IMG/VR virus record: IMGVR_UViG_3300045988_156243
DNA from: a virus
Taxonomy: Duplodnaviria > Heunggongvirae > Uroviricota > Caudoviricetes
Direction: 5' to 3' (one strand)
Length of the DNA stretch: 48,634 nt
The position numbers and the translations under genes are program-made. Of the stretch, positions 4,924 through 39,697 are shown piece after piece. Position 1 is the stretch's first letter; every line of letters begins with the position of its first letter. The notes beneath the pieces are model-generated. The model saw only the letters and a list, made by a program, of their open reading frames with translations. It made no database searches and was not told the DNA's origin.

Positions 4924-5073
4924 ATGTCCGAGCAACAATATACACGGTTACTGAAAACTCGTCTAACCGACCTCAAACGGCTGCAAGCTGGTCGCTTATT
5001 TGCCCTGCTATCCACCAGGCCAGAATGGGTACGTGAAGCAGTTCTAAAAGGCTTAATGCGCTCCAGCGTTTAA
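4924..5073 (+). CDS. Hypothetical small protein
   Basis: 49 aa from the internal ATG (ORF-track start is TTG at 4891); aagggg RBS. Confidence 0.3.
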   Translation: MSEQQYTRLLKTRLTDLKRLQAGRLFALLSTRPEWVREAVLKGLMRSSV

Positions 5074-5083
5074 ATTCAACCAT

Positions 5084-5105
5084 AAAAAAGGCCCCCGAAG
5101 GGGCC
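5084..5105. terminator. Intrinsic terminator, stronger on the minus strand
   Basis: Hairpin ggcccc-cgaa-ggggcc preceded by aaaaaa (a U-tract on the minus strand). Confidence 0.6.
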
Positions 5106-5111
5106 TAATCG

Positions 5112-5233
5112 CTACTTGCTGCTAATGTTTATCGTCACATTCAGAGCGTTATCAGTAATCTTCCAACCCTCCCCATGTGGCGTAAACAAAGCTCCAGTAA
5201 CAACGATAAAAATACACATACAGTATTTTTTCA
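5112..5233 (-). CDS. Small hydrophobic peptide, candidate type I toxin
   Basis: 40 codons from ATG at 5233 (MKKYCMCIFIVVTGALF...); ORF-track version is TTG-extended; its 5' UTR carries the complement of the 20-mer at 5299-5318. Confidence 0.3.
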
Positions 5234-5298
5234 TTGTGTGGCCCTTACAGGCCGTTTCACGGCATCCCCACCGACGAAAATGACGCGAGAGCAAGCAC

Positions 5299-5318
5299 GC
5301 TGTTTGTGCCTGCGTGGT
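5299..5318. repeat. 20-mer box copy 1 (gctgtttgtgcctgcgtggt)
   Basis: 19/20 identical to 5549-5568. Confidence 0.8.
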
Positions 5319-5548
5319 ACGGCAAGTGGATAATCCTTTCCTGAAAGTCAGTGCCCGGGTGCGAATCGGCGGAAAGGCCCCAAGCCATATTACACGTCAT
5401 ACCCTTCATAATGAAGGAATAAAAAACGCTTTTATTACATAAGATTACACGTAAATAAGTTAAAAACCTTCATTTTGCATGAGCTAATGAGCTAAATTTT
5501 TTTATATGAATAGTGGACTATTCACCTCAGTTGGGTAAGAATGTAGTT

Positions 5549-5568
5549 GCTGTTTGTGCTTGCGTGGT
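5549..5568. repeat. 20-mer box copy 2 (gctgtttgtgcttgcgtggt)
   Basis: Direct repeat of 5299-5318 at the predicted 5' end of a plus-strand sRNA. Confidence 0.8.
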
Positions 5569-5651
5569 TGTATTAGTACAACGACGTTATGCTGAAAGGA
5601 CCGCGAATCCGATCAGCACGAAAGAACCGTCCTCAAAAGGACGGTTTTTTT
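5549..5651 (+). ncRNA. Candidate ~100-nt sRNA (antitoxin-like), ending in an intrinsic terminator
   Basis: Possible promoter TGGACT-16 bp-TAAGAAT just upstream; terminator ccgtcc-tcaaaa-ggacgg plus T7 at 5627-5651; no credible ORF. Confidence 0.4.
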
Positions 5652-6205
5652 GTTTCTCCCCCTTCCTTCCCAAATGATTCAAATGTTAATGAGAGAGAAT
5701 CATTTGATATGTTCGATTTAGCGCCGTTATCGACCCAATTTCTGTATGCTTCATCACAACAGTACCTTACAGCAGTTGGAGTAACAGGGATGCCGCCCCC
5801 AAATGAGAATCCCATTGAGCTAATGCTAACTCTTTCGAATGGCCTATTTCTCAATGCTTCAAACCCCTTGCTATTAAAGTAACGCAGCATCAGAGGTAAA
5901 AGGTTATCCTCGTCCTGACTGATTGTTCCAGGGAAAAAGTAGTAACCATAACGGTTAAATTCGGGAATAAGATTTTCTACCAATGACATGAAATTCACTG
6001 GAGTAATATTAAGGGCTGTGAAAGCACCAAAAAGGGCGTCAACTGTTAATACAGACTGCCCGTTCTCTATCTTTGTCCATGCGTTTGGTGTTTTTCCAGC
6101 AGCTTGAGCCAGCACTCCTTGATGCACACCTCTTTCTAGCCTAAGTTCTTTTATGATCATTAGGTGAATTGTTGAAAAACATGAGTTTTTTGACTGTTCA
6201 ATCAT
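5633..6205 (-). CDS. HTH_XRE-family transcriptional regulator with C-terminal domain
   Basis: 190 aa; N-terminal HTH (ELRLERGVHQGVLAQAAGKTPNAWTKIENGQ); divergent from the antirepressor operon. Confidence 0.7.
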   Translation of the reverse strand: MIEQSKNSCFSTIHLMIIKELRLERGVHQGVLAQAAGKTPNAWTKIENGQSVLTVDALFGAFTALNITPVNFMSLVENLIPEFNRYGYYFFPGTISQDEDNLLPLMLRYFNSKGFEALRNRPFERVSISSMGFSFGGGIPVTPTAVRYCCDEAYRNWVDNGAKSNISNDSLSLTFESFGKEGGETKKPSF

Positions 6206-6650: not shown

Positions 6651-6842
6651 ATGACAAACCTACCCCATGACTATTACGTCAACCTCGTAAAGATCCTTCT
6701 CAAGAAAGCCTCATACGCCGATAAATTCCGCCTGGCTGAAATCATCGAGCGCGAAGCTATGCGCATCGCCAGCAACGATAACGCTGTTTCTGACGCAAAA
6801 ATCTCCCTCGTAACCAAAGTAGTTATGGGAGGTGCAAAATGA
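6651..6842 (+). CDS. Small ORF translationally coupled to the antirepressor (icd-like position)
   Basis: 63 aa from ATG at 6651 with ggag RBS; stop overlaps the antirepressor start (ATGA). Confidence 0.35.
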   Translation: MTNLPHDYYVNLVKILLKKASYADKFRLAEIIEREAMRIASNDNAVSDAKISLVTKVVMGGAK

Positions 6843-7990
6843 AAACGCTTCCGACCGTTAACACCCTACAGCCTATCCTGCATAATCAGATTCCAGTAAT
6901 CACAACTGAGCTACTCGCCCGCCTTTATGGAACAGAAGCAATCCGTATACAGCAAAATCACCATGAAAATAAAACTCGGTTCATTGAGGGGAAGCACTTC
7001 TTTAAAGCTGTTGGTGATGAACTCAAAAATTTGCGACTAGTTTTAAACGAGTCACAAAATGAGGTGCCAATTTCCCCCAAAACTCGCTCTCTCATCCTCT
7101 GGACAGAACGCGGGGCTGCACGTCACGCCAAAATGCTTGAAACTAACCAAGCGTGGGATGTGTTCGAACGGCTGGAAGACTGCTATTTCAACCAGAACGC
7201 GCAAACGGCCGCGACCGTAACCGTCTCGCCAAACAATGCTCGTGAGGTTGTCGATACGCTCAACGCCAAACCGATGTTTTACATTAAGGTGTGCAACAAC
7301 GAGCCACTCACAACCTCAGCCGATGTTGCCCAGGCATTCAGCACCACAAACAATTCCATCGTTATGGCCATCGATGCGTTACGCATTCCTCGCACAGCTG
7401 CGGCACGTCATTTCTTTAAAGAGCAACGACCGCTGGAAGGAAGCGACCGCGAAATAACAATCTATCGCATGACAAAAGACGGATTTACCTTGCTCATGGA
7501 AAGTATCGACGGTCCAGGCGTGAAAGATATCAAGCTGGCCTACATTGAAGCCTTTAACGCTATCAGCAGCGTGTTAAAAACACAGTACGAGCGTGATCTG
7601 GCTAAACGACTGTACCAGGAAAAAACGATTATCCGCGCGGCAACAGAGCATAATCGGCTATTAACGGAACCGAACTACAGGAAGGAACTAATCAAGGAGT
7701 TTGACAAGGCAACAGGGAAAACCAAAGCGGCGCTAAATCTGCCAGCAATGACTCAGGAAAATGTGATATCAGCCTTACTTCTTGATCTGCTCAGAAACGC
7801 CAGAGCACTTATCAGCTTTGACGAAAACCTGAATCCTCAGCTCAAGCTACTACCACCGACAGGCAAAGTAGTCGACCAAGCTGATCACAACAGCATACTC
7901 AGCGTTCTGGATGCAAACCTGCCAGCCAGGACACTACAGGATCTGATAAAAACATGTGCTGATAAGCTGGCACAGAAAAGCAGACCATAA
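6839..7990 (+). CDS. Antirepressor (KilA-N/ORF6N-type N-domain plus Rha/Ant-type domain)
   Basis: 383 aa; N-terminal ITTELLARLYGTEAIRIQQNHHENKTRFIEGKHFF and central PMFYIKVCNNEPLTTSADVAQAF resemble phage antirepressor domains. Confidence 0.8.
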   Translation: MKTLPTVNTLQPILHNQIPVITTELLARLYGTEAIRIQQNHHENKTRFIEGKHFFKAVGDELKNLRLVLNESQNEVPISPKTRSLILWTERGAARHAKMLETNQAWDVFERLEDCYFNQNAQTAATVTVSPNNAREVVDTLNAKPMFYIKVCNNEPLTTSADVAQAFSTTNNSIVMAIDALRIPRTAAARHFFKEQRPLEGSDREITIYRMTKDGFTLLMESIDGPGVKDIKLAYIEAFNAISSVLKTQYERDLAKRLYQEKTIIRAATEHNRLLTEPNYRKELIKEFDKATGKTKAALNLPAMTQENVISALLLDLLRNARALISFDENLNPQLKLLPPTGKVVDQADHNSILSVLDANLPARTLQDLIKTCADKLAQKSRP

Positions 7991-7996
7991 CTACAA

Positions 7997-8020
7997 GGGG
8001 CTACGGCCCCTTACTCTTTT
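7997..8020 (+). terminator. Intrinsic terminator after the antirepressor
   Basis: Hairpin ggggc-tacg-gcccc followed by a T-rich run. Confidence 0.6.
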
Positions 8021-8728
8021 CTCTCTTATCAACACCAGAGACTTTCTGAAAATCCTTTCGAATAGCGTCAGCGTCACGCGCCAAGCCCATACTGGAACGT
8101 GTCGCCATATGACGAAAATGATCAACTGCCGGAAACAAAGAAATAATGGACCCAATAGCTTGCAGCAAACTCGCTTTTCTACGCATCATAATTCCACCAT
8201 AACCGATAACCACCCTTCAGACACAACCCCCCCTCCCCCCATACAGGGTGCCCTTTACCGGAGTTCCGGCCCCTTCTCAAAAGCATCAAAAAAAGCTCGA
8301 GATAGAGTACCGGAACTCATGCCACCAGATAGCTCCACATCGTTTCCAATGCTTCGCCGCCGTGTGCGCCCTGTGGCCCACAATCATGCCATTGGTCGTC
8401 TGATATACCTTCTTCTGCTCATAGAGCACAGGCGAGTTGTCGCACTCCTGCCTTTCTCAGACTCGACTTAGTTTAGATCGCTGTTCCTGGCTTGCGTCAG
8501 CACACTTTCCCCTTGTACGCATACCCGCGCGCCACTTCGCCCAAAAACACCGAACCCAACGAAGTGGCAAAGACAACGACGCGAGCGTGAGTCTGAAATG
8601 GGCACCAGTAAAAAAGGGGTTGCAGGCGCAAAAAGATTTGATTATCTTTAGACGCAAGAAAGCCGCCCCAATCAAGAGGTGTCTTTTTAAATCCAGCCTA
8701 CCAAGCAAGATTTAAATTTCAGACTGAA

Positions 8729-8752
8729 AACCGCCCGGCAAGGCGGTTTTTG
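8729..8752. terminator. Bidirectional intrinsic terminator
   Basis: Hairpin accgcc-cggcaa-ggcggt followed by ttttt; an A-run on the other side. Confidence 0.65.
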
Positions 8753-8799
8753 TCTTTCTGGCGCTTACATTACACCACCATAAAACGATCCGTAAAGGA

Positions 8800-9072
8800 T
8801 CATTTGATCCCTTGTTCCAATTCTGCCGACACTTTAACCTTTTCCCATACAAGGGTTTGCAGCCTTAACAGAATCGCATCTTTATCAAGGTGTGAAAGAT
8901 CCTTCACCATATCGTCAAACGACAGAACGCGAATGGCCATCTCAATGACCCTCGGCGGCTCCCCCTTCTCATATCGCTTATATGTAGCCAACGATATCCC
9001 AAATTCTTCGGCGGCTCGCTCCTGCGTCCAGTTCATCCCACGACGCCATAATTTCAATTCATAACCCGTCAT
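8800..9072 (-). CDS. Small HTH DNA-binding protein
   Basis: 90 aa from ATG at 9072 (ORF-track start is TTG); HTH-like WTQERAAEEFGISLATYKRYEKG; palindromic operator just upstream. Confidence 0.55.
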   Translation of the reverse strand: MTGYELKLWRRGMNWTQERAAEEFGISLATYKRYEKGEPPRVIEMAIRVLSFDDMVKDLSHLDKDAILLRLQTLVWEKVKVSAELEQGIK

Positions 9073-9100
9073 AGCACCCTCCTCGCACAATATTAACACT

Positions 9101-9671: not shown

Positions 9672-9971
9672 TCAGATGTTAAACGCTATTCGTTTTCCTG
9701 TGGGAAGCTCAACATCCAGGCTTAATTTGCCTCCCATAGCTTCAACGTAACGCTTTAATGTCGCCAGCTTTAAATCATTTCCGCGCTGCTCCAGCTTTGT
9801 TACTGCTGGCTGGCTTATACCCATCGCCTCAGCAACCTGTTTTTGTGATAACTGGAGTTCTTCACGCATCATCTGCAAGCCGACCTCAAGAATCATCTCA
9901 TCTGCCATTTCTTTAATTCGCGCCTGGCTTTCCGGTGAACGGCTGGCAATCGCCTCATCTAATGTTCTCAT
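9672..9971 (-). CDS. HigA-like antitoxin (HTH_XRE)
   Basis: 99 aa; HTH LQLSQKQVAEAMGISQPAVTKLEQ; sits immediately downstream of the toxin gene. Confidence 0.75.
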   Translation of the reverse strand: MRTLDEAIASRSPESQARIKEMADEMILEVGLQMMREELQLSQKQVAEAMGISQPAVTKLEQRGNDLKLATLKRYVEAMGGKLSLDVELPTGKRIAFNI

Positions 9972-10318
9972 TACTTGCTCTCCAGTGTGTTCAGATGTGC
10001 TGCAAACTCATCCTCAGCTATACGCACCAGTTTTTCATAAAACCGCTTATCGTTACTTTTGTCTCCTGCACAAAGAACGATGGCCCGGCGAATCGGATCG
10101 AACGCATAAAAGGCTCTTATCGGACGGCCAGAAAACTGAACGCGAAGCTCTTTCATATTTTTGTACCGAGAACCTTTTACGGTATCGGCATATGGCCTAG
10201 GTAACTCAGGTCCGTAAACCTGTAGCTTTTTCAAATCAGCCAAAACCTTTTCCTGAAGAGCGTCTTCTTGCTCATTTAGCCAGTCGTCAAATCGCTGGCT
10301 AAAAAGTACCGTCCACAT
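9971..10318 (-). CDS. RelE/HigB-type toxin (phage Gp49-like killer protein family)
   Basis: 115 aa from ATG at 10318 (ORF-track start is TTG); toxin-first order overlapping the antitoxin start. Confidence 0.7.
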   Translation of the reverse strand: MWTVLFSQRFDDWLNEQEDALQEKVLADLKKLQVYGPELPRPYADTVKGSRYKNMKELRVQFSGRPIRAFYAFDPIRRAIVLCAGDKSNDKRFYEKLVRIAEDEFAAHLNTLESK

Positions 10319-10355
10319 GCTCAATCCTATAACCTGTAGTTTATATCACTAACTA

Positions 10356-10849: not shown

Positions 10850-11149
10850 TCAAACATCTGTTTTGTTATCAATGAAGATTAACCCTAACCCAGCGAAGTA
10901 ACACAGCAGCGCCCAGGCTGCATACGGAATGCTGGATCTGGATGTGGACTCCTTTAACATCTGCCAATTGCGAACATTGCGACTATCTTTTAAGCCAAGT
11001 TTTTTGGCCAACTGCGAGCCGCTCATTCCGGTCAGGCCAATGACTGCCCGAACTTCTCCACATGTAGGAGACTCCCATTCATCCGCTTTTTTTAAACAAG
11101 CCGGATTCAACATTTTTAAAACAGTATCTTTATCCATAACCATCTCCAT
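10850..11149 (-). CDS. Hypothetical protein with HTH-like segment and C-terminal hydrophobic helix
   Basis: 99 aa; GLTGMSGSQLAKKLGL then IPYAAWALLCYFAGLGLIF. Confidence 0.35.
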   Translation of the reverse strand: MEMVMDKDTVLKMLNPACLKKADEWESPTCGEVRAVIGLTGMSGSQLAKKLGLKDSRNVRNWQMLKESTSRSSIPYAAWALLCYFAGLGLIFIDNKTDV

Positions 11150-12794: not shown

Positions 12795-12811
12795 AACCAC
12801 GTTACGTGGTT
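12795..12811. promoter_or_regulatory. Operator-like palindrome aaccacgttacgtggtt upstream of the repA leader
   Basis: Same AACCAC-N5-GTGGTT pattern as the cI/cro operators. Confidence 0.4.
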
Positions 12812-12940
12812 TTAAGAGAACTCTACCACAACACTTTCGGTCATGCACGAAGTCTCTCACTGATCGAACGATAATCCACCAGTAAAAGGATCTAAATTGG
12901 ATCTCGTTTTGCGAGCATCATACTACTGGCCTAACTCCAG

Positions 12941-13495
12941 TCAATGATTCCCAGCCGGAAACCTGCGGTAAAGCGTGGATAAGGTAACATCGAAGATAAT
13001 CGCTATCCGCTTACGTGAAACACCATTCGCAATAAGCCTTCCGATCTGTTCCCATTGCTCTGGTGCCAGCTTTGAGCGACGTCCTCCTATCCTGCCGTTA
13101 GCCCTTGCCACCGCCAATCCTGCACGCGTTCTTTCAATCATATTTTCCCGCTCCATCTCTGCGACTGCACTCAGCATCGTGTAGGCAAAGCGGCCAATTG
13201 AAGTGCTAATTTTTATCCCTTCCGTAATCGAAATAAACTCAATGTTGTTTGATAAAAAATGGTTAAGTAAATCAACAAGATGAATCAGAGAACGCCCCAT
13301 TCGGTCCAGCTTCCAGACAATAACCGTATCGCCCGGCCGTAGCACCTTAAGTAGCTTATCAAGCCCTGGCCGTTTTGATTTAGCACCGGATATTTTATCT
13401 TCAAAAATCCGGTCACATCCTGAACTCCTGAGCGCCTCCAGTTGTAATTCCAAATTCTGGTCAAAAGTTGACACCCTCGCATAACCATATTGCAT
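12941..13495 (-). CDS. Serine DNA invertase (Gin/Hin/Cin/Pin family)
   Basis: 184 aa; N-terminus MQYGYARVSTFDQNLELQ with catalytic Ser; C-terminal HTH; adjacent to an invertible tail-fibre segment. Confidence 0.9.
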   Translation of the reverse strand: MQYGYARVSTFDQNLELQLEALRSSGCDRIFEDKISGAKSKRPGLDKLLKVLRPGDTVIVWKLDRMGRSLIHLVDLLNHFLSNNIEFISITEGIKISTSIGRFAYTMLSAVAEMERENMIERTRAGLAVARANGRIGGRRSKLAPEQWEQIGRLIANGVSRKRIAIIFDVTLSTLYRRFPAGNH

Positions 13496-13562
13496 ACTTT
13501 CTAAACCGCGATTGTTGCTAAAAGCGGGAAAAAATATCGTTCAGACGACACAGAGGCAATTC

Positions 13563-13590
13563 GCAAAAACCTCGGTTTGCAGGAAACGGT
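13563..13590. repeat. Recombination site (gix-like), boundary of invertible segment
   Basis: aaaaacctcggtttgcaggaaac; closely resembles the Mu gix site as I recall it. Confidence 0.7.
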
Positions 13591-14824
13591 AAATCAGGCT
13601 TCTGGCGCATTACAAAAAAACCAGAACGGCGCGGATATTCCTGATAAGGATCGCTTCCTGAGTAACATTAATGTTTACAGCAAAGGCGAGGTGGATAAGA
13701 AAAAAGGAATGCGGCAGTACGTATTTAACGCGCCGTCTAATGCTGTTGGTGGAAAGTGGTATCCAGTTATTTTCCAGCGTTCCACAGGCAGCACTGGCGA
13801 GCTGGCTTCCAGAGTGATTATAACGACCACATCTGCCGGTGGTAATTACGAAATGAATAACTGCGAATTCAATGGAATGGTAATGCCTGGTGGCTGGACT
13901 GATCGTGGTTCATATGCGGCAGGTTATTTTTCGACGTATCAGACTAATGAGCGCGCAATCCACTCCATTGTAACAAGCCTTAAAGAAGATGATGTATGCA
14001 GCGTTTTTTACGTTGAAGGCAGGGCTTTTCCTGTGCGGGTTTCTGCTGAAGAAGGGCTAACGGTTATTGTTCCAACTCAGGATTATACCGTCGGTCAAAC
14101 AACATATAAGTGGGGAGCAACTAATCCCGCGACAGAAAGCACGAACGCACAAGCCATTCTGGATTTTAACAATGGGCGAGGGTTTTATTGTTCTCACTCA
14201 ATATTCGGTATTAATGCCATTTTTAGCGGAAATCTGGGGATTGGAACGGCTAATGCCCTGGGTGGAAATTCAATAGTTTTAGGAGATAACGATACCGGGT
14301 TTAAACAAAATGGTGATGGGGTGCTGGATGCTTATGCTAATGGTGTGCATGTATTCCGCTTTATAAATGGTTCAGCAAGATCATTAAAGGGTATTCAGGC
14401 TGGGGAAAGTAAGTTCTTCACACTTTCAAGTGCAAATACCGCTGCCCGTAATGCATCATTTAACTTGTGGGGAAATTCGTCAAGACCAACTGTTGCAGAG
14501 CTTGGTGATGATTCAGGCTGGCATTTCTATAGTCAGCGAAATACAGATAACTCGGTGATATTTGCTGTAAACGGTCAGATACAACCAAGCAACTGGGGTA
14601 ACATTGATTCCCGATATGTGAAAGATGTTCGGCTTGGCTCACAGCAATATTATGGTGTGAACAACTGGCAAACATGGAACTTCCAGTGCCCTTCAGGTCA
14701 TGTATTGTCTGGTATAAATGTTCAGGATACAGGGTCCAATTCTGCCGATAATATAGCTGGCGTTTATTACAGACCCGTTCAAAAGTATATAAATGGCACC
14801 TGGTATAATGTAGCGAGCGTTTAA
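13577..14824 (+). CDS. Alternative tail-fibre C-terminal cassette (Sv'-like), silent orientation
   Basis: Frame reads through the gix-like site (NLGLQE versus YLGLRE in the expressed fibre); C-terminus [12 protein letters not shown] parallels the expressed fibre end. Confidence 0.7.
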
Positions 14825-14825
14825 T

Positions 14826-15353
14826 ATGATGCACTTAAAGAACATTAAAGCGGGTAACGCTAAAACACTGGAACAGTACGAATTAACAAAGAATTTTGAC
14901 GTTATCTGGTTGTGGTCCGAAGACGGAAAAAACTGGTATGAAGAGGTAAAGAATTTTCAGGAAGACACAATAAAGATTGTTTACGATGAACATAATATTA
15001 TTGTTGCCATAACTAAAGATGCCTCCACGCTTAACCCTGAAGGTTTTAACGTCGTTGAGGTCCCCGATATAACAGCCAATCGTCGGGCCGATGATTCCGG
15101 TAAGTGGATGTTTAAGGACGGAGCTGTAGTTAAACGGATTTATACGGCAGACGAGCAGCAACAACAGGCCGAATCACAAAAGGCCGCGTTACTTTCCGAA
15201 GCGGAAAGCGTTATTCAGCCACTGGAGCGCGCTGTCAGGCTGAATATGGCGACGGATGAGGAGCGTAGCCGACTGGAAGCATGGGAACGCTACAGTGTTA
15301 TGGTCAGCCGTGTGGATACGGCAAAGCCCGAATGGCCACAAAAGCCTGAGTAA
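14826..15353 (+). CDS. Tail fibre assembly protein (alternate copy)
   Basis: 175 aa; paralogue of 15382-15915 (MMHLKNI(K/T)AGN...[10 protein letters not shown]) in opposite orientation. Confidence 0.75.
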
Positions 15354-15358
15354 AAATT

Positions 15359-15378
15359 AAGGCCCGATATCGGGCCTT
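15359..15378. terminator. Bidirectional terminator between the two tail fibre assembly genes
   Basis: Perfect hairpin aaggcccgatatcgggcctt. Confidence 0.55.
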
Positions 15379-15381
15379 CTC

Positions 15382-15915
15382 TCATTCTGGTTGTTCGGGA
15401 AACGTTACTGGCAAGCTGGAAGTGTCTGTAGATTCGACTTTCTGCGCAAAGAGCATCCACTCTGTTAATTTTTGTTTATTCTCGTCGGAAATGATGCCCA
15501 GCCGTAGCTGTGAGTCCCATAGCTGGGTTTTATCCCTGACAAGTTGCAACAGGCTTTGCTTTTCATTTTCCGCTTGTTGCCTCTGCTCTTCCTCGGTATA
15601 AGTTCGCTTTATCACTACGCCATCTTTGAACATCCATTTCCCCGAAATATCAGCCCGGCGATTTGCTGTAATATCAGGTAATTCAACGACGCTTGCCCCC
15701 TCTGGATTAATTGCTGAAACATCCTTTTCAATGCAAATAATAACGCCGTTATGGTCATAGACCATTTTCAAAGTGTCTGGCTGGAAATTCTTTTGTTCCT
15801 CATACCAGTTTTTTCCATCATCTGAATAAAGCCACTTAATGTTAAATTGCTTTGTTAGCTGGTACTGCTCCACTGTTTTAGGATTACCAGCGGTAATGTT
15901 TTTTAAGTGCATCAT
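15382..15915 (-). CDS. Tail fibre assembly protein (expressed orientation)
   Basis: 177 aa; immediately downstream of the tail fibre gene. Confidence 0.8.
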   Translation of the reverse strand: MMHLKNITAGNPKTVEQYQLTKQFNIKWLYSDDGKNWYEEQKNFQPDTLKMVYDHNGVIICIEKDVSAINPEGASVVELPDITANRRADISGKWMFKDGVVIKRTYTEEEQRQQAENEKQSLLQLVRDKTQLWDSQLRLGIISDENKQKLTEWMLFAQKVESTDTSSLPVTFPEQPE

Positions 15916-15917
15916 AA

Positions 15918-17987
15918 TTAAATACTTCCCGCGTTATACCAAGTCCCATTAATGCAATACTGAATTGGCCTTGCCTGAGTTGTATCAATTAATTCGTCAC
16001 GGTTCCCGTTAACTGAACCCGTAACGACATAACCTGACCTGTCAGACCAGCCGGGGCCATTCCATGTCTGAACAGATGACAGACCGCCAAGGCGAATACC
16101 TGTAATAAACCTTGAGTTACATTCTGCCTGAGTATATGCACCAACATCTCCCGCTGAAGGTTTTCGTGTCGTGGTATAGAAATCTGACCAACCTAATTCA
16201 AACCCATAACCATCACGAGCCGACCTGTAGGAAATGCCACCATTTTTATAATTCACACGGAATTGTACGGCAGGACAGCTACCAGCATTTATATTAAAGT
16301 GAAGAATTAATGCAGATGCACCACCAATCAGGGCGTTATATGCACCACTATCCCAATTCCATCCAACGGATGTATCACCATTAACAGTATTACCTGTTTG
16401 TCGGAGTGCAAATGCATTGACATTTTTGGCACTAATTGAAATATCGCTAGAACCATCAAAACCAACTCCAGCAATTTTTCGTGCTGTTTTCAGCTTTGTT
16501 GCAGTAGCGGCATTGCCGGACAGTTCCCCAGAAAGGCCACCGCTGAATGTTTGTCGATTAGTCCAGGTATTCGCTGTACTGAGTAACGGTATTTTCTCCC
16601 CGCTTGTGCCGAGTTCTCGTAAACCGAGGTATTCGATAACGGCGGCAACGGTCGATTTCGCAAGAATATCCCGCCCTACTTTTGTCAGAGTTGCCAGGCT
16701 GGCGACATCATTCCCCGTAAAATACGGAAACCTGTCTGCCGCAGTAGCAAGCCCGGCCAGCGCCGTCAGGGTGGCATCTTTCGGTTGCTTACCCGCAAGC
16801 GCGTTAGTCATGGTGGTCGCAAAATTCGGGTCGTTGCCCAACGCCGCAGCCAGCTCGTTCAGCGTATTCAGTGCGTCAGGCGACGAGTCCACGAGGGCAG
16901 CGATCGCAGCCATAACATAAGCCGTGCTTGCGATCTGAGTATTGTTAGTACCTTTTGGCGCAGTTGGTGTTGTTGGTGTTCCGGTCAGCGCCGGACTGTT
17001 CAGGGGCGCTTTCTTGTTCGTTTCATCCATTACCACCTTTACCGCTTTCGATGTCGCGGCCAGTGTTTCAGACGTGCTGTTGGTTGCACTACTGAGCTGA
17101 GTGATTCCCCTTACTGTCAGTGAAGCTACAGGCACATTTGTTATCTGCTCCCACGAATGCGTGTGATTGGACGGAGCCTTTCCGGCCGCAAGATCATACG
17201 CTGCCTTAACAGCCTTTGGTGTTGCGGCCAGCGTTTCCGAATCACTGTTAGTGGCGCTACTGAGCTGAACAATCCCTTTTCGCGCCGTGGTAGCGTCCTG
17301 TGCGGTGTATTTGCCATTAGCCAGGTCATATGCTGCCTTAACAGCCTTAGGCGTCGCAGCAAGCGTTTCAGACGAGCTATTGGTGGCGCTGCTAAGTTGA
17401 ACAAAGCCTTTTGAGGTTAAAGTTGCATCAGGATGATTACGTGATTGCTCATGTTTCACAATGGCTTGCTTAAGCCGCTTTGCTGAAACAGCAAGGGAAT
17501 CATCTGTACCTGCATCAATTTCTTGTTCATTAGCAAACCTTGCCACCCCAACAACAGTTTCGGTCGCGGGAGGATTAATAAACTCAATATCACCAAATGT
17601 AATATTTTTAGTATCAAGAGTTTTAATTGCTATATCACTTGATATTAAAGCGATAGTAGATGATGCTTTATTTATTATTGCTTGTTCTTGTGAGTATACA
17701 GCAAACAACGTACCCTTATTCGTATACAATCCTATTGTATGGACAACATACTCATCTTTACTATCATCCTTCGCTGTTACATGAATTGTATCAGGGGAAA
17801 CAACTTTGCCACCTATTGTGGTAAGTCGTTTTATTTCGTTTGTTATATTTGTTTGTGAAGTTGACGTGACATAATATCTACTACCTAAACCAACAGAAAC
17901 AATCTCAACTTTATTTGTTCCTGTTTTGTTGGCATTAACCAGCTCCTGACGCCCGGCGTCAGTCATCGTAAATAATAATTTACTCAC
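15918..17987 (-). CDS. Tail fibre protein (P2 gpH / Mu S-like), GTG start
   Basis: 689 aa; N-terminus MSKLLFTMTDAGRQ resembles P2 H; repeated ...SSATNS.SETLAATPKAVKAAYDLA... units; contains the gix-like site at 16614-16639. Confidence 0.85.
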   Translation of the reverse strand: MSKLLFTMTDAGRQELVNANKTGTNKVEIVSVGLGSRYYVTSTSQTNITNEIKRLTTIGGKVVSPDTIHVTAKDDSKDEYVVHTIGLYTNKGTLFAVYSQEQAIINKASSTIALISSDIAIKTLDTKNITFGDIEFINPPATETVVGVARFANEQEIDAGTDDSLAVSAKRLKQAIVKHEQSRNHPDATLTSKGFVQLSSATNSSSETLAATPKAVKAAYDLANGKYTAQDATTARKGIVQLSSATNSDSETLAATPKAVKAAYDLAAGKAPSNHTHSWEQITNVPVASLTVRGITQLSSATNSTSETLAATSKAVKVVMDETNKKAPLNSPALTGTPTTPTAPKGTNNTQIASTAYVMAAIAALVDSSPDALNTLNELAAALGNDPNFATTMTNALAGKQPKDATLTALAGLATAADRFPYFTGNDVASLATLTKVGRDILAKSTVAAVIEYLGLRELGTSGEKIPLLSTANTWTNRQTFSGGLSGELSGNAATATKLKTARKIAGVGFDGSSDISISAKNVNAFALRQTGNTVNGDTSVGWNWDSGAYNALIGGASALILHFNINAGSCPAVQFRVNYKNGGISYRSARDGYGFELGWSDFYTTTRKPSAGDVGAYTQAECNSRFITGIRLGGLSSVQTWNGPGWSDRSGYVVTGSVNGNRDELIDTTQARPIQYCINGTWYNAGSI
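16614..16639. repeat. Recombination site (gix-like) inside the tail fibre gene
   Basis: ttctcgtaaaccgaggtattcgataa; inverted relative to 13563-13590, sharing the CCTCGGTTT core. Confidence 0.7.
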
Positions 17988-18017
17988 GCTTAATTCCTTG
18001 AATTAACAAATTGCGAA

Positions 18018-37700: not shown

Positions 37701-39074
37701 CTACTTAATCAACGGCCGGAAAGCCGCCAGCACATCATCAGATCGTCCGATTGTTGAACCACCAGGCAACGGCAACTCAAACTCAAAACGAACAGCTTTC
37801 TCCAGACTCGCCCAACTAAGGGAATCATCGTTAATGACGTGCAAATACCAGCTCTTACAGTTGAATATTGACCGCTTAATCCTGAAACCATGTACACAAC
37901 ACAACTGCTTCACTTCATCATCAGAGTGAAACTTCTGGTAAAACCAGTGCCCCTTCCGGTACAACGCGGTAAAACCGTTATGATCAATAAAATAAAGCCG
38001 GCTTTTGGAACTCGCCGCTTGTGTTTGCTTCAGGACTGTTTCCAGCTCTCCACGGCTACGACCAGAAAAGAATATTGACCCACCAGCTTTACACAGGCCT
38101 TTCAGAACCGTCAGAACGGACCATTCAGCCTCAACACTATCGACCGAGTTCAAAACGCTATCGCAAATCACGTAGTCGTAACGCCCTCGCGTTTTTAAGT
38201 CGTCCACCAGCGTATCAATCATCCGGTTTGTTGCGGTCCTATCCAGAGTGTTTCCAGCGCCCTTACGGCGGAAAAGCTCGAGATCATGCAGGTTATATCC
38301 CTTTGCCCTGAGCATTCGCGCGTAGTCTCCCTGCCCCGAACCAAAATCAATTCCTCTTGGAGTCTTGGCAATGATCGGGAGGATCAACGACTCATACAGG
38401 TTTGATTTCAGGCTGCCACCATTACGCAACCGCATAAGCTGCGCATACGTCTGGATGTATGTTGTTTTCTCCAGATGAGAATACTCAAATACACCATAAG
38501 TTTTATTCAGATAACTTTGGTATTTTTCCTTCTCAACATCAGGGATCACAAACACCGTTAGCGGTGTGCGCGTCATCTTCGCTGCTAATGCATACTGAGC
38601 ACAGTGAATAACCTCGCCAGACTGAGTAGCAACACAACCACCCCACGGACCATACTTGATAACCAGTTCCGCTATGTTCTTTCGAACATATGCCATTTTC
38701 GCGCGCATATTGCCTGAGATCTGGCTTGCCGATACCTGAACAAAACCATGCTTATCTTCCAGACCGGACACCCTGCAACGCTCATCTCCGCTATCAAAAT
38801 CCGTTCCGTTATGCAGTTGGTTAAACCGTACTTCGTCGTATACCGTCGTTTCACAGGGCAACACATACACCGCAGCACGCGTTATTCCCAACTTACGTAG
38901 CGCCTTCGTCCTTTGATGTCCCGCCACCAGCAAATCGCCGCGCACTATCAATGGCTTCACAAGCCCCAGTTCCCTGACGCTTTCCGCCAGCCTAGCAAGA
39001 TCATCCTCACCGATAAAACGCGGGTTATATTCCGCGCCGCGTAGGTGCGTTATGTCGTAATTGAGGTGAAGCAT
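37701..39074 (-). CDS. ParB N-domain fused to class I SAM-dependent methyltransferase
   Basis: About 457 aa from ATG at 39074; N-terminal ParB-like LIVRGDLLVAGHQRTKAL; C-terminal methyltransferase motifs IDFGSGQGDY and YDYVICDSVLNSV; no DPPY-type motif seen. Confidence 0.75.
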   Translation of the reverse strand: MLHLNYDITHLRGAEYNPRFIGEDDLARLAESVRELGLVKPLIVRGDLLVAGHQRTKALRKLGITRAAVYVLPCETTVYDEVRFNQLHNGTDFDSGDERCRVSGLEDKHGFVQVSASQISGNMRAKMAYVRKNIAELVIKYGPWGGCVATQSGEVIHCAQYALAAKMTRTPLTVFVIPDVEKEKYQSYLNKTYGVFEYSHLEKTTYIQTYAQLMRLRNGGSLKSNLYESLILPIIAKTPRGIDFGSGQGDYARMLRAKGYNLHDLELFRRKGAGNTLDRTATNRMIDTLVDDLKTRGRYDYVICDSVLNSVDSVEAEWSVLTVLKGLCKAGGSIFFSGRSRGELETVLKQTQAASSKSRLYFIDHNGFTALYRKGHWFYQKFHSDDEVKQLCCVHGFRIKRSIFNCKSWYLHVINDDSLSWASLEKAVRFEFELPLPGGSTIGRSDDVLAAFRPLIK

Positions 39075-39697
39075 CAGCACACCTCCCCAGCCAGCAATGC
39101 GGATACAAATCCGATATAGCTGCCATTATCATCAACATAACGAGACACCGCGCAGTCAAAACGATCCGCTTCCTCATCCGTTGCCGGGATTTTATGACCT
39201 CCAAATGACAGGTACTGAACTTTTACGCCTGATTTGGCCTCATCCTTCTCAAATGGGATATCCATACCCTCTGTGTCATCGTAGACCGCCGCACTCAATA
39301 AGTTATCCAGTTCGCGCTGAGTAAAACCAATTGAGTCCAGAGCAAAATCATCGGCCGCAAGATCTGCAAGCTCCGCGCTTAACAACTCTTCATCCCAACC
39401 AGCATTCAGCGGAATACGGTTGTCGGCCAGACGATATGCCTTCTTCTGATTCTCCGTTAGCCCAGCCAGAACAATGCAGGGAACATCATCCATCCCCAAC
39501 TGAGTGGCCGCAGCAATTCGACCATGACCAGCAATTACAACGTTGTTCTCGTCTATCAGGATCGGATTAGTCCATCCGTACTCCTGTATGCTGGCAACAA
39601 TCTGATCTACCTGCTCCACGGAGTGTGTGCGAGCGTTCTTTTCATAACCAATCAACACAGAAAGTGGTAAAGAAACCACATTAAGATGTTTTGTCAT
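39074..39697 (-). CDS. ParB N-terminal-domain (ParB-like nuclease) protein, paralogue 2
   Basis: 207 aa; WTNPILIDENNVVIAGHGRIAAA; clearly paralogous to 35817-36407. Confidence 0.8.
   Translation of the reverse strand: MTKHLNVVSLPLSVLIGYEKNARTHSVEQVDQIVASIQEYGWTNPILIDENNVVIAGHGRIAAATQLGMDDVPCIVLAGLTENQKKAYRLADNRIPLNAGWDEELLSAELADLAADDFALDSIGFTQRELDNLLSAAVYDDTEGMDIPFEKDEAKSGVKVQYLSFGGHKIPATDEEADRFDCAVSRYVDDNGSYIGFVSALLAGEVC

Follow-up and report, generated by a model that had tools for sequence, protein, structure and literature searches.

Invertible tail-fibre segments driven by invertases of the Gin, Cin, Pin or Min type have been known since the 1980s. In phage Mu, particles of the G(-) orientation, which carry S' and U', adsorb to other enterobacteria than G(+) particles do, and in phage P1 the invertible C segment is bounded by long inverted repeats of 0.6 kb. 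Segments of this kind have been catalogued genome-wide (e.g. PMC5903667 and PMC9881135). Here we analyse a locus of this type in the IMG/VR virus record IMGVR_UViG_3300045988_156243 (Caudoviricetes), a stretch of 48,634 nucleotides referred to below as the window, with positions counted from its first letter. We put at roughly 0.9 the probability that this locus, part of a complete ~48.6-kb phage-plasmid, is a tail-fibre (host-range) switch of the Mu G-segment type that has two states and is driven by an invertase.

In the mechanism that we propose, the fibre gene would be read on the minus strand from a late tail operon, its first 456 codons (Sc) being fixed. At the right recombination site it would enter a 3,052-bp segment composed of two convergent cassettes, each combining a fibre C-terminus with the matching assembly chaperone (Table 1). 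The adjacent serine invertase is predicted to bind two inverted 26-bp sites, cut the central dinucleotide (TC/GA), rotate one pair of half-sites and religate, whereby the segment would turn and the other cassette would be joined in frame to Sc. As sequenced, the element should produce a 689-aa fibre with a tip like that of Mu S' (G-) together with a U'-like chaperone; after inversion it should produce an 870-aa fibre with a different tip, together with a chaperone resembling Mu U.

Table 1. Features of the proposed fibre switch, with positions in the window
Feature	Position	Strand	Remarks
Serine DNA invertase, 184 aa	12941-13495	-	Resolvase + HTH_7; outside the segment, transcribed away from it
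Candidate recombinational enhancer in the 5' coding region of the invertase gene	13411-13474	-	Pair of Fis-like motifs (G-N13-C) at 13460-13474 and 13411-13425
Left recombination site, gix-type, 26 bp	13560-13585	+	TTCGCAAAAACC TC GGTTTGCAGGAA; crossover dinucleotide TC at 13572-13573
Silent fibre C-terminus Sv', 414 aa past the junction	13574-14824	+	Without an N-terminus of its own; in frame with Sc after simulated inversion
Silent assembly gene U', 175 aa	14826-15353	+	Caudo_TAP 1.2e-36; 92% identical to Mu U
GC-rich palindrome, terminator-like, between the convergent assembly genes	15359-15378	.	Repeat search
Expressed tail-fibre assembly gene U, 177 aa	15382-15915	-	Caudo_TAP 4.8e-36; 96.6% identical to Mu U'
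Variable C-terminus of the expressed fibre, Sv, 233 aa	15918-16625	-	Last 165 aa share 89% identity with the tip of Mu S' (G-)
Right recombination site, gix-type, 26 bp	16614-16639	+	TTCTCGTAAACC GA GGTATTCGATAA; crossover dinucleotide GA at 16626-16627; within the reading frame of the fibre
Constant N-terminal part of the fibre, Sc, 456 aa	16626-17987	-	Has three Phage_fiber_2 repeats; the gene stands last in the baseplate/tail operon

The layout of the locus is that of the Mu G segment. Both have the gene order Sc, then Sv and U converging on U' and Sv', then the invertase; in both the invertase gene lies outside the segment, adjoins one site and is transcribed away from it (in the window, in the same direction as the fibre gene), and in both the crossover falls inside the fibre open reading frame (ORF) at a 26-bp site, the inverted repeats being short. 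The chaperones of the window are 92-97% identical to those of Mu, and the resemblance extends to the expressed tip, which is 89% identical to that of Mu S'. In contrast, Mu Gin is only 54% identical to the invertase of the window, with differences at Hin-numbered positions 47, 105-107 and 109, and the invertase-side outer half-site reads TTCGCA... in the window and TTATCC... in Mu. Sc, which comprises 456 aa with Phage_fiber_2 repeats in the window, has ~170 aa in Mu, and the Sv' of the window is unrelated to Mu S save at its extreme ends. The host elements differ as well, Mu being a transposable phage and the window a lambda-headed plasmid prophage.

Like the window, P1 and P7 are phage-plasmids with an invertible fibre segment (the C segment, with Cin and cix sites). 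The S protein of P7 is 58% identical to the window's Sc over 283 aa, the N-terminus of the window's Sv (GLRELGTSGEKIPLL...) is P7-like (72-77%), and the right inner half-site resembles P7 cix. However, cin of P7 is read in the direction of the segment, overlapping cixL at its 3' end, whereas in the window the 5' end of the invertase gene faces the site, and the central dinucleotide is TT/AA in P7 as against TC/GA here. The inverted repeats of P1 are long, and that of the window is 26 bp. A preliminary description of this DNA had proposed a switch of the "Mu G / P1 C type"; the first half of that assignment stands on the strength of the short repeats and the invertase 5' end beside the site, and the second does not, a layout of the P1 C type being ruled out by the gene orientation (the invertase 5' end faces the site at a distance of 64 bp) and by the 26-bp repeat.

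Nearly the same cassettes are found in P2-like prophages of Escherichia coli O145, O111 and O103, which encode a Gin-like invertase and match window positions 13566-16416 at 95% identity. Their right site has the same outer half as that of the window, and the segment is inverted between near-isogenic strains. They encode a canonical invertase of the Gin type, which is 82% identical to Gin and 55% identical to that of the window, and, unlike the window, these prophages have another Sc and other flanking phage genes and are chromosomally integrated.

To define the recombination sites, we took gix from the annotated ends of the G segment in the Mu record, and cix from the annotated P7 record. Each of the two window sites matches Mu gix at 22 of 26 positions, above the top score in 200 shuffles (20/26), and a scan of the whole 48.6-kb window against Mu gix returned nothing else at 17/26 or better. 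With only two sites in the window, the system is a simple two-state switch, and extra crossover sites, as in a Min- or shufflon-like multiple-inversion system, are ruled out. The two sites are inverted relative to each other and share the core ACCTCGGTTT, a repeat finder reporting the inverted pair as 13566-13585 and 16614-16633. Their dyad self-matches are 16/26 and 18/26, and the asymmetric central dinucleotide is the same in both and oppositely oriented (TC/GA), as needed for inversion. The left outer half-site, TTCGCAAAAACC, is unchanged in all members examined of the phage-plasmid family described below, and the right outer half-site, GGTATTCGATAA, is unchanged throughout the family and also in the P2-like prophages.

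The inverted gix-like pair is thus located where the preliminary description had placed it, at the full 26-bp extents listed in Table 1, and the similarity to gix is borne out by the alignment to the real Mu site. The more specific statement that the first site lies within one mismatch of Mu gix holds for a 20-nt stretch, AAAACCTCGGTTTGCAGGAA, and not for the full 26 bp, over which there are four mismatches, all except one in the outer half-site.

Longer inverted repeats, of 82-92 bp, occur in Yersinia phage vB_YpM_39 and in the O111 and O145 prophages, where the first ~85 nt of the segment (equivalent to window positions 13566-13650, and compared with 6746-6827 and 7226-7317 in stretches from two relatives) are repeated in inverted form at its far end. 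The window shares only the 26-bp sites because its cassettes start differently (GLQETVNQ... versus GLRELGTS...).

The fibre ORF in its present form runs from 17987 to 15918 on the minus strand and encodes 689 aa. The right site sits inside it, so that the crossover does lie within coding sequence, as had been proposed. The silent ORF on the plus strand (13577-14824) comprises 415 aa, and its TTG start lies within the repeat. Replacing positions 13574-16625 by their reverse complement keeps the reading frame across the junction (...AAVIEYLGL/QETVNQASG..., the slash marking the joint) and gives a fibre of 870 aa, which has the 456-aa prefix in common with the present one. An alignment of this predicted fibre with the one that the P2-like prophage of E. 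coli O145 RM9872 expresses extends to the final residue of the prediction, indicating that the silent half is intact, and both Sv' and U' are full-length and uninterrupted. The ORF coordinates given in the preliminary description (12941-13495, 15382-15915 and 15918-17987 on the minus strand; 13577-14824 and 14826-15353 on the plus strand) are correct, and with all genes intact and an in-frame product in simulation its expectation that inversion would exchange the fibre C-terminus and assembly gene for a silent pair is upheld.

The likeness of the silent tip to Mu proteins is limited to its first 30 and last ~75-95 residues. It is a mosaic, the first half resembling side fibres of lambdoid and 9g-like phages and the second half resembling Mu-like Yersinia phages. 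Considering the unrelated tips and the established biology of Mu and P1, the two orientations probably confer different host ranges through fibres that recognise different receptors; by analogy, a specificity like that of Mu G(-) is expected of the orientation now seen, and another one after inversion. At the position equivalent to the palindrome between the convergent assembly genes, phage D108 has annotated terminators. In the constant part of the fibre, tandem-like repeats of ~132 nt (17188-17280 and 17320-17412, also 17036-17100) encode the Phage_fiber_2 units, and family members vary in the number of these units and in fibre length (689-816 aa).

The window encodes a head and packaging module comprising a GpA terminase, a lambda-family portal, a ClpP-type protease and capsid protein E, as well as a tail sheath, a tape measure and a P2-type baseplate (Tail_P2_I and Baseplate_J, downstream of the fibre region), and it has an IncFII_RepA (1.1e-43) upstream of the switch region. 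Its length fits that of circular relatives of 48-49 kb. The backbone recurs in many circular E. coli plasmids of ~48 kb, and other relatives have been isolated as infective Yersinia phages. The element, ~48.6 kb long, is a complete phage-plasmid that combines an IncFII-type RepA with a lambda-type head and a contractile tail; the earlier label "lambda-headed phage-plasmid" finds support at family level in the terminase, the portal, the capsid protein, the tail sheath, the baseplate and RepA.

The same ~48-kb family includes the 48,488-bp plasmid of ATCC 25922, p48 of strain 1428, CP070025, CP099296 and CP057727, and the Yersinia phages vB_YpM_39, vB_YpM_41 and vB_YpM_44. These elements have the backbone, the invertase, the outer half-sites and Sc in common with the window and differ from it in their combination of cassettes. 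The expressed fibre of CP070025 is 99.4% identical to that of the window. The flanks of the segment (12800-13650 and 16619-18000) are 98-99.9% identical to the three Yersinia phages, the second of them reaching 99.9% in vB_YpM_41 and vB_YpM_44. Homology to these relatives ends at 16619, inside the right site, and the interior is another mix of cassettes. In the three collections searched, no record holds both cassettes of the window together, the best coverage being 84% at 95.6% identity. Two candidates for membership were rejected, pSLy3 because it belongs to an SSU5-type group and vB_YpM_HQ103 because it is an unrelated 32-kb phage.

Both orientations, for which the preliminary description had suggested looking, exist in sister elements. 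The E. coli plasmids CP099296 and CP057727, both of 48,056 bp, are 99.9% identical and differ solely by a ~2.95-kb inversion between the homologous sites, and where their collinear and inverted alignments meet they share 33-36 bp, with the two sites at the centre. The 94-kb ATCC 25922 assembly CP032086 contains two plasmid copies whose segments are oppositely oriented. In these copies an A/G difference in the inner half-sites, at position 6, travels with the segment while the outer half-sites stay in place, which puts the exchange at the site core. This record (NZ_CP032086.1; plasmid pL25922_3, 94,204 bp, labelled "linear") is a near-dimer of the 48,488-bp plasmid; it is probably not a true dimer but a sequence assembled from a mixed population.

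The two junctions that inversion of the window should create were built and then searched for. The predicted invertase-side junction was found whole in plasmid CP099184 (100% coverage, 98.7% identity), which holds the expressed cassette of the window in the silent position. Its left site, TTCGCAAAAACC TC GGTTTACGAGAA, unites the left outer half of the window with the right inner half and is the exact recombinant predicted. The fibre gene of CP099184 is interrupted by an IS3-family transposase (7855-9083 of the stretch examined), so that this element is probably defective as a phage, yet it holds the flipped cassette. In 22 E. coli chromosomes the predicted junction on the fibre side occurs without a break, at 96-97% identity. 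A further inversion is seen between the prophages of the near-isogenic O145 strains RM9872 and RM9467-C1, in which the flanks are 100% identical and a 3.3-kb segment is inverted between gix sites; this segment is the one that is 95% identical to window positions 13566-16416.

The serine invertase that had been noted beside the left site is intact and has the appropriate domains (Pfam Resolvase PF00239, 2.6e-44, residues 3-135; HTH_7 PF02796, 2.9e-13, residues 138-181). This domain order and the length of 184 aa fit the invertase subfamily, whose members have ~185-195 aa with a resolvase domain and a C-terminal helix-turn-helix (HTH). Its best solved relative is Gin, at 211 bits and without gaps over 180 aa, compared with 110 bits for gamma-delta resolvase, and residues S9, R7, D64, R65 and R68 are invariant in an alignment with Gin, Cin, PinE and a P2-like invertase. 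Identities of 73-82% are seen among Gin, Cin and PinE, and likewise among Gin, Cin and the P2-like invertase, whereas the enzyme of the window is only 54-60% identical to Gin, Cin and PinE (55% to Cin, 60% to PinE) and represents a divergent branch of the DNA invertase family rather than a close homologue of Gin. The same branch is found in the P1-like Salmonella phage SJ46 (88% identity) and in Escherichia phage Eeyore (82%), and within the phage-plasmid family the invertase is 98-100% conserved. A mosaic joint inside the invertase gene, considered on account of a BLAST extension to 13293 against an O111 prophage, was rejected, as identity there is only ~70% and reflects ordinary family similarity.

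The Fis contact in helix 1 of the Hin DNA-binding domain is made by Gln151, Arg154 and Leu155, which are conserved uniquely among Fis/enhancer-dependent invertases (PMC3798978). The invertase of the window keeps this triad as Q150, R153 and L154 (EQIGRL), invariant in the alignment. The two Fis-like motifs of the candidate enhancer fall at nt 22-36 and 71-85 of the invertase gene, a stretch that aligns with the annotated P7 cin enhancer (gene nt 19-86) and with the same part of Mu gin, and the centre of the proximal motif is ~105 bp from the centre of the left site. Identity at synonymous sites in the candidate enhancer is in excess in the comparison with Mu (8/13 versus 25/84) but not in that with P7 (4/13 versus 30/86), the counts being very small. 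From the motifs we infer a candidate enhancer in the 5' end of the invertase gene, and inversion would probably require both it and Fis.

The alternative that survives best is that the locus is a frozen relic, in which sites and invertase have been inherited and the switch is off or negligible, for instance through a drifted right inner half-site, the silent cassette serving as a reservoir for recombination. Several observations speak for such a state or against a working switch. The window is one molecule in one orientation, and we therefore infer, rather than observe, the switching of this particular copy. Five monomeric plasmid assemblies of the ATCC 25922 lineage, two labelled ATCC 25922 and three bearing other strain names, are likewise all in one orientation, so that one form probably predominates; flipping may be infrequent, or assemblies may report the majority form. 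The left and right sites match each other at only 19 of 26 positions, and a scan for a promoter of the invertase gene gave nothing above chance.

To these points is added an invertase that is non-canonical at three regulatory positions. Among the helix-B residues that contact the enhancer, Hin residue 47 is "always lysine" in 15 invertases and positions 48 and 51 hold Lys or Arg (PMC3798978). The window has Asp46 at the Hin-47 position (RPGLDKLLK, versus RPGLKRALK in Gin), with Lys at the equivalents of 48 and 51. The helix-E switch of Hin, in which Phe105 and Phe106 act with His107 and Met109, keeps the dimer in an inactive state until it is acted on by the enhancer with bound Fis (PMC4513852). 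This helix reads GRFFFHVM in Gin, Cin, PinE and the P2-like invertase, and GRFAYTML in the window: Ala-Tyr replaces Phe105-Phe106, His107 is changed to Thr and Met109 to Leu, and the pocket residue Phe87 (Hin Phe88) is kept. The single substitutions F105A and F106Y cripple Hin (PMC3798978, PMC4513852), F105A giving no inversion and F106Y a trace, and M109L is weakly active (PMC4513852). The natural invertase is evidently active, given that the family flips, and its pocket must therefore have co-evolved.

We nevertheless regard a relic as improbable. Its invertase is intact, and elements seen flipped have invertases 98.9-100% identical to it, that of CP099296 and CP057727 differing at 2 of 184 residues (98.9% identity). 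The suspect half-site, GGTTTACGAGAA, occurs recombined onto the invertase-side outer half in CP099184, and the silent cassette shows no interruption. Within the preferred reading of a working switch, the distinct invertase branch might be gated unlike the textbook invertasome, for example with weaker or no dependence on Fis and the enhancer, though on ordinary gix-type sites; this seems to us unlikely. The divergent invertase acts with gix-type sites and with cassettes that are common to Gin-type systems.

A different function for the switch has also to be weighed, namely that it serves the lysogen rather than the host range of the virion, for example through fibre or chaperone proteins that block the adsorption of other phages. 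Recent reports on PinQ and PinR, Pin-type invertases of cryptic or defective prophages, lend support to a role of this kind (PMC12529663; bioRxiv 10.1101/2025.03.28.646004). In the present case the element has a complete set of head, tail, baseplate and packaging genes, its close relatives have been isolated as infective Yersinia phages, and the fibre gene stands at the end of the late tail operon. A role confined to the lysogen is on these grounds highly improbable, and we retain a host-range switch of the virion as the preferred reading.

Although some relatives have the longer inverted repeats of 82-92 bp, and although one inversion among the Yersinia phages ends in 400-nt tfa repeats without gix, so that non-site-specific events or artefacts do occur here, it is scarcely credible that the orientation differences among relatives reflect RecA-dependent recombination between inverted repeats or assembly errors, given that the inverted repeat of CP099296 and CP057727 is only ~33-36 bp long and centred on the 26-bp sites, that the exchange in ATCC 25922 is confined to the stretch from the outer half-site to position 6 of the inner one, that four independent element pairs break at the same sites, and that the repeat of the window, 26 bp at 19/26, is by the established homology requirements of RecA too short and too diverged for efficient recombination.

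The inversion without gix distinguishes vB_YpM_44 from vB_YpM_41, which are otherwise collinear and ~98-100% identical. It lies at ~5000-6000 of the stretch examined and ends in the 5' parts of the convergent tfa genes, where the 400-nt inverted repeats are 75-83% identical; the equivalents in the window are 14789-15173 and 15568-15953. With both ends inside tfa genes, the C-terminal parts of the chaperones are swapped between the cassettes and the fibre tips stay. The event could be homologous recombination or an assembly artefact, and if real it leaves one phage with a mismatched tip and chaperone.

Annotations of relatives of the element already include "hin" or "recombinase family protein", and a literature search returned no paper on this 48-kb phage-plasmid family or its switch. 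What sets the present case apart is the particular pair of cassettes, the documentation that the plasmid family flips in nature and the non-canonical branch of the invertase. For annotation, the "hypothetical protein" or "partial tail protein, missing N-terminus" found beside a recombinase in this plasmid family is the silent half of a working switch and not a pseudogene. Plasmids of this family occur widely in E. coli, among others in the reference strain ATCC 25922, and Yersinia pestis is infected by relatives of theirs. Each genome would carry two receptor specificities, and the recombination sites are the exact points at which cassettes have been traded with P2-like, Mu-like and P1-like phages; both properties bear on how far such plasmids spread by infection. 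The divergent invertase, for its part, provides a natural test of which regulatory residues of Hin and Gin are really required.

Between the regulatory region and repA, a RelE/HigB-like toxin ORF stands with small HTH-like neighbours (9971-10324 and 10850-11149, both on the minus strand); relatives of the toxin are annotated higB2, and the region is probably a plasmid addiction module. A 459-aa protein encoded at 37701-39080 on the minus strand combines a ParB N-terminal domain with a methyltransferase domain and gives a full-length match to PHROG 5475.

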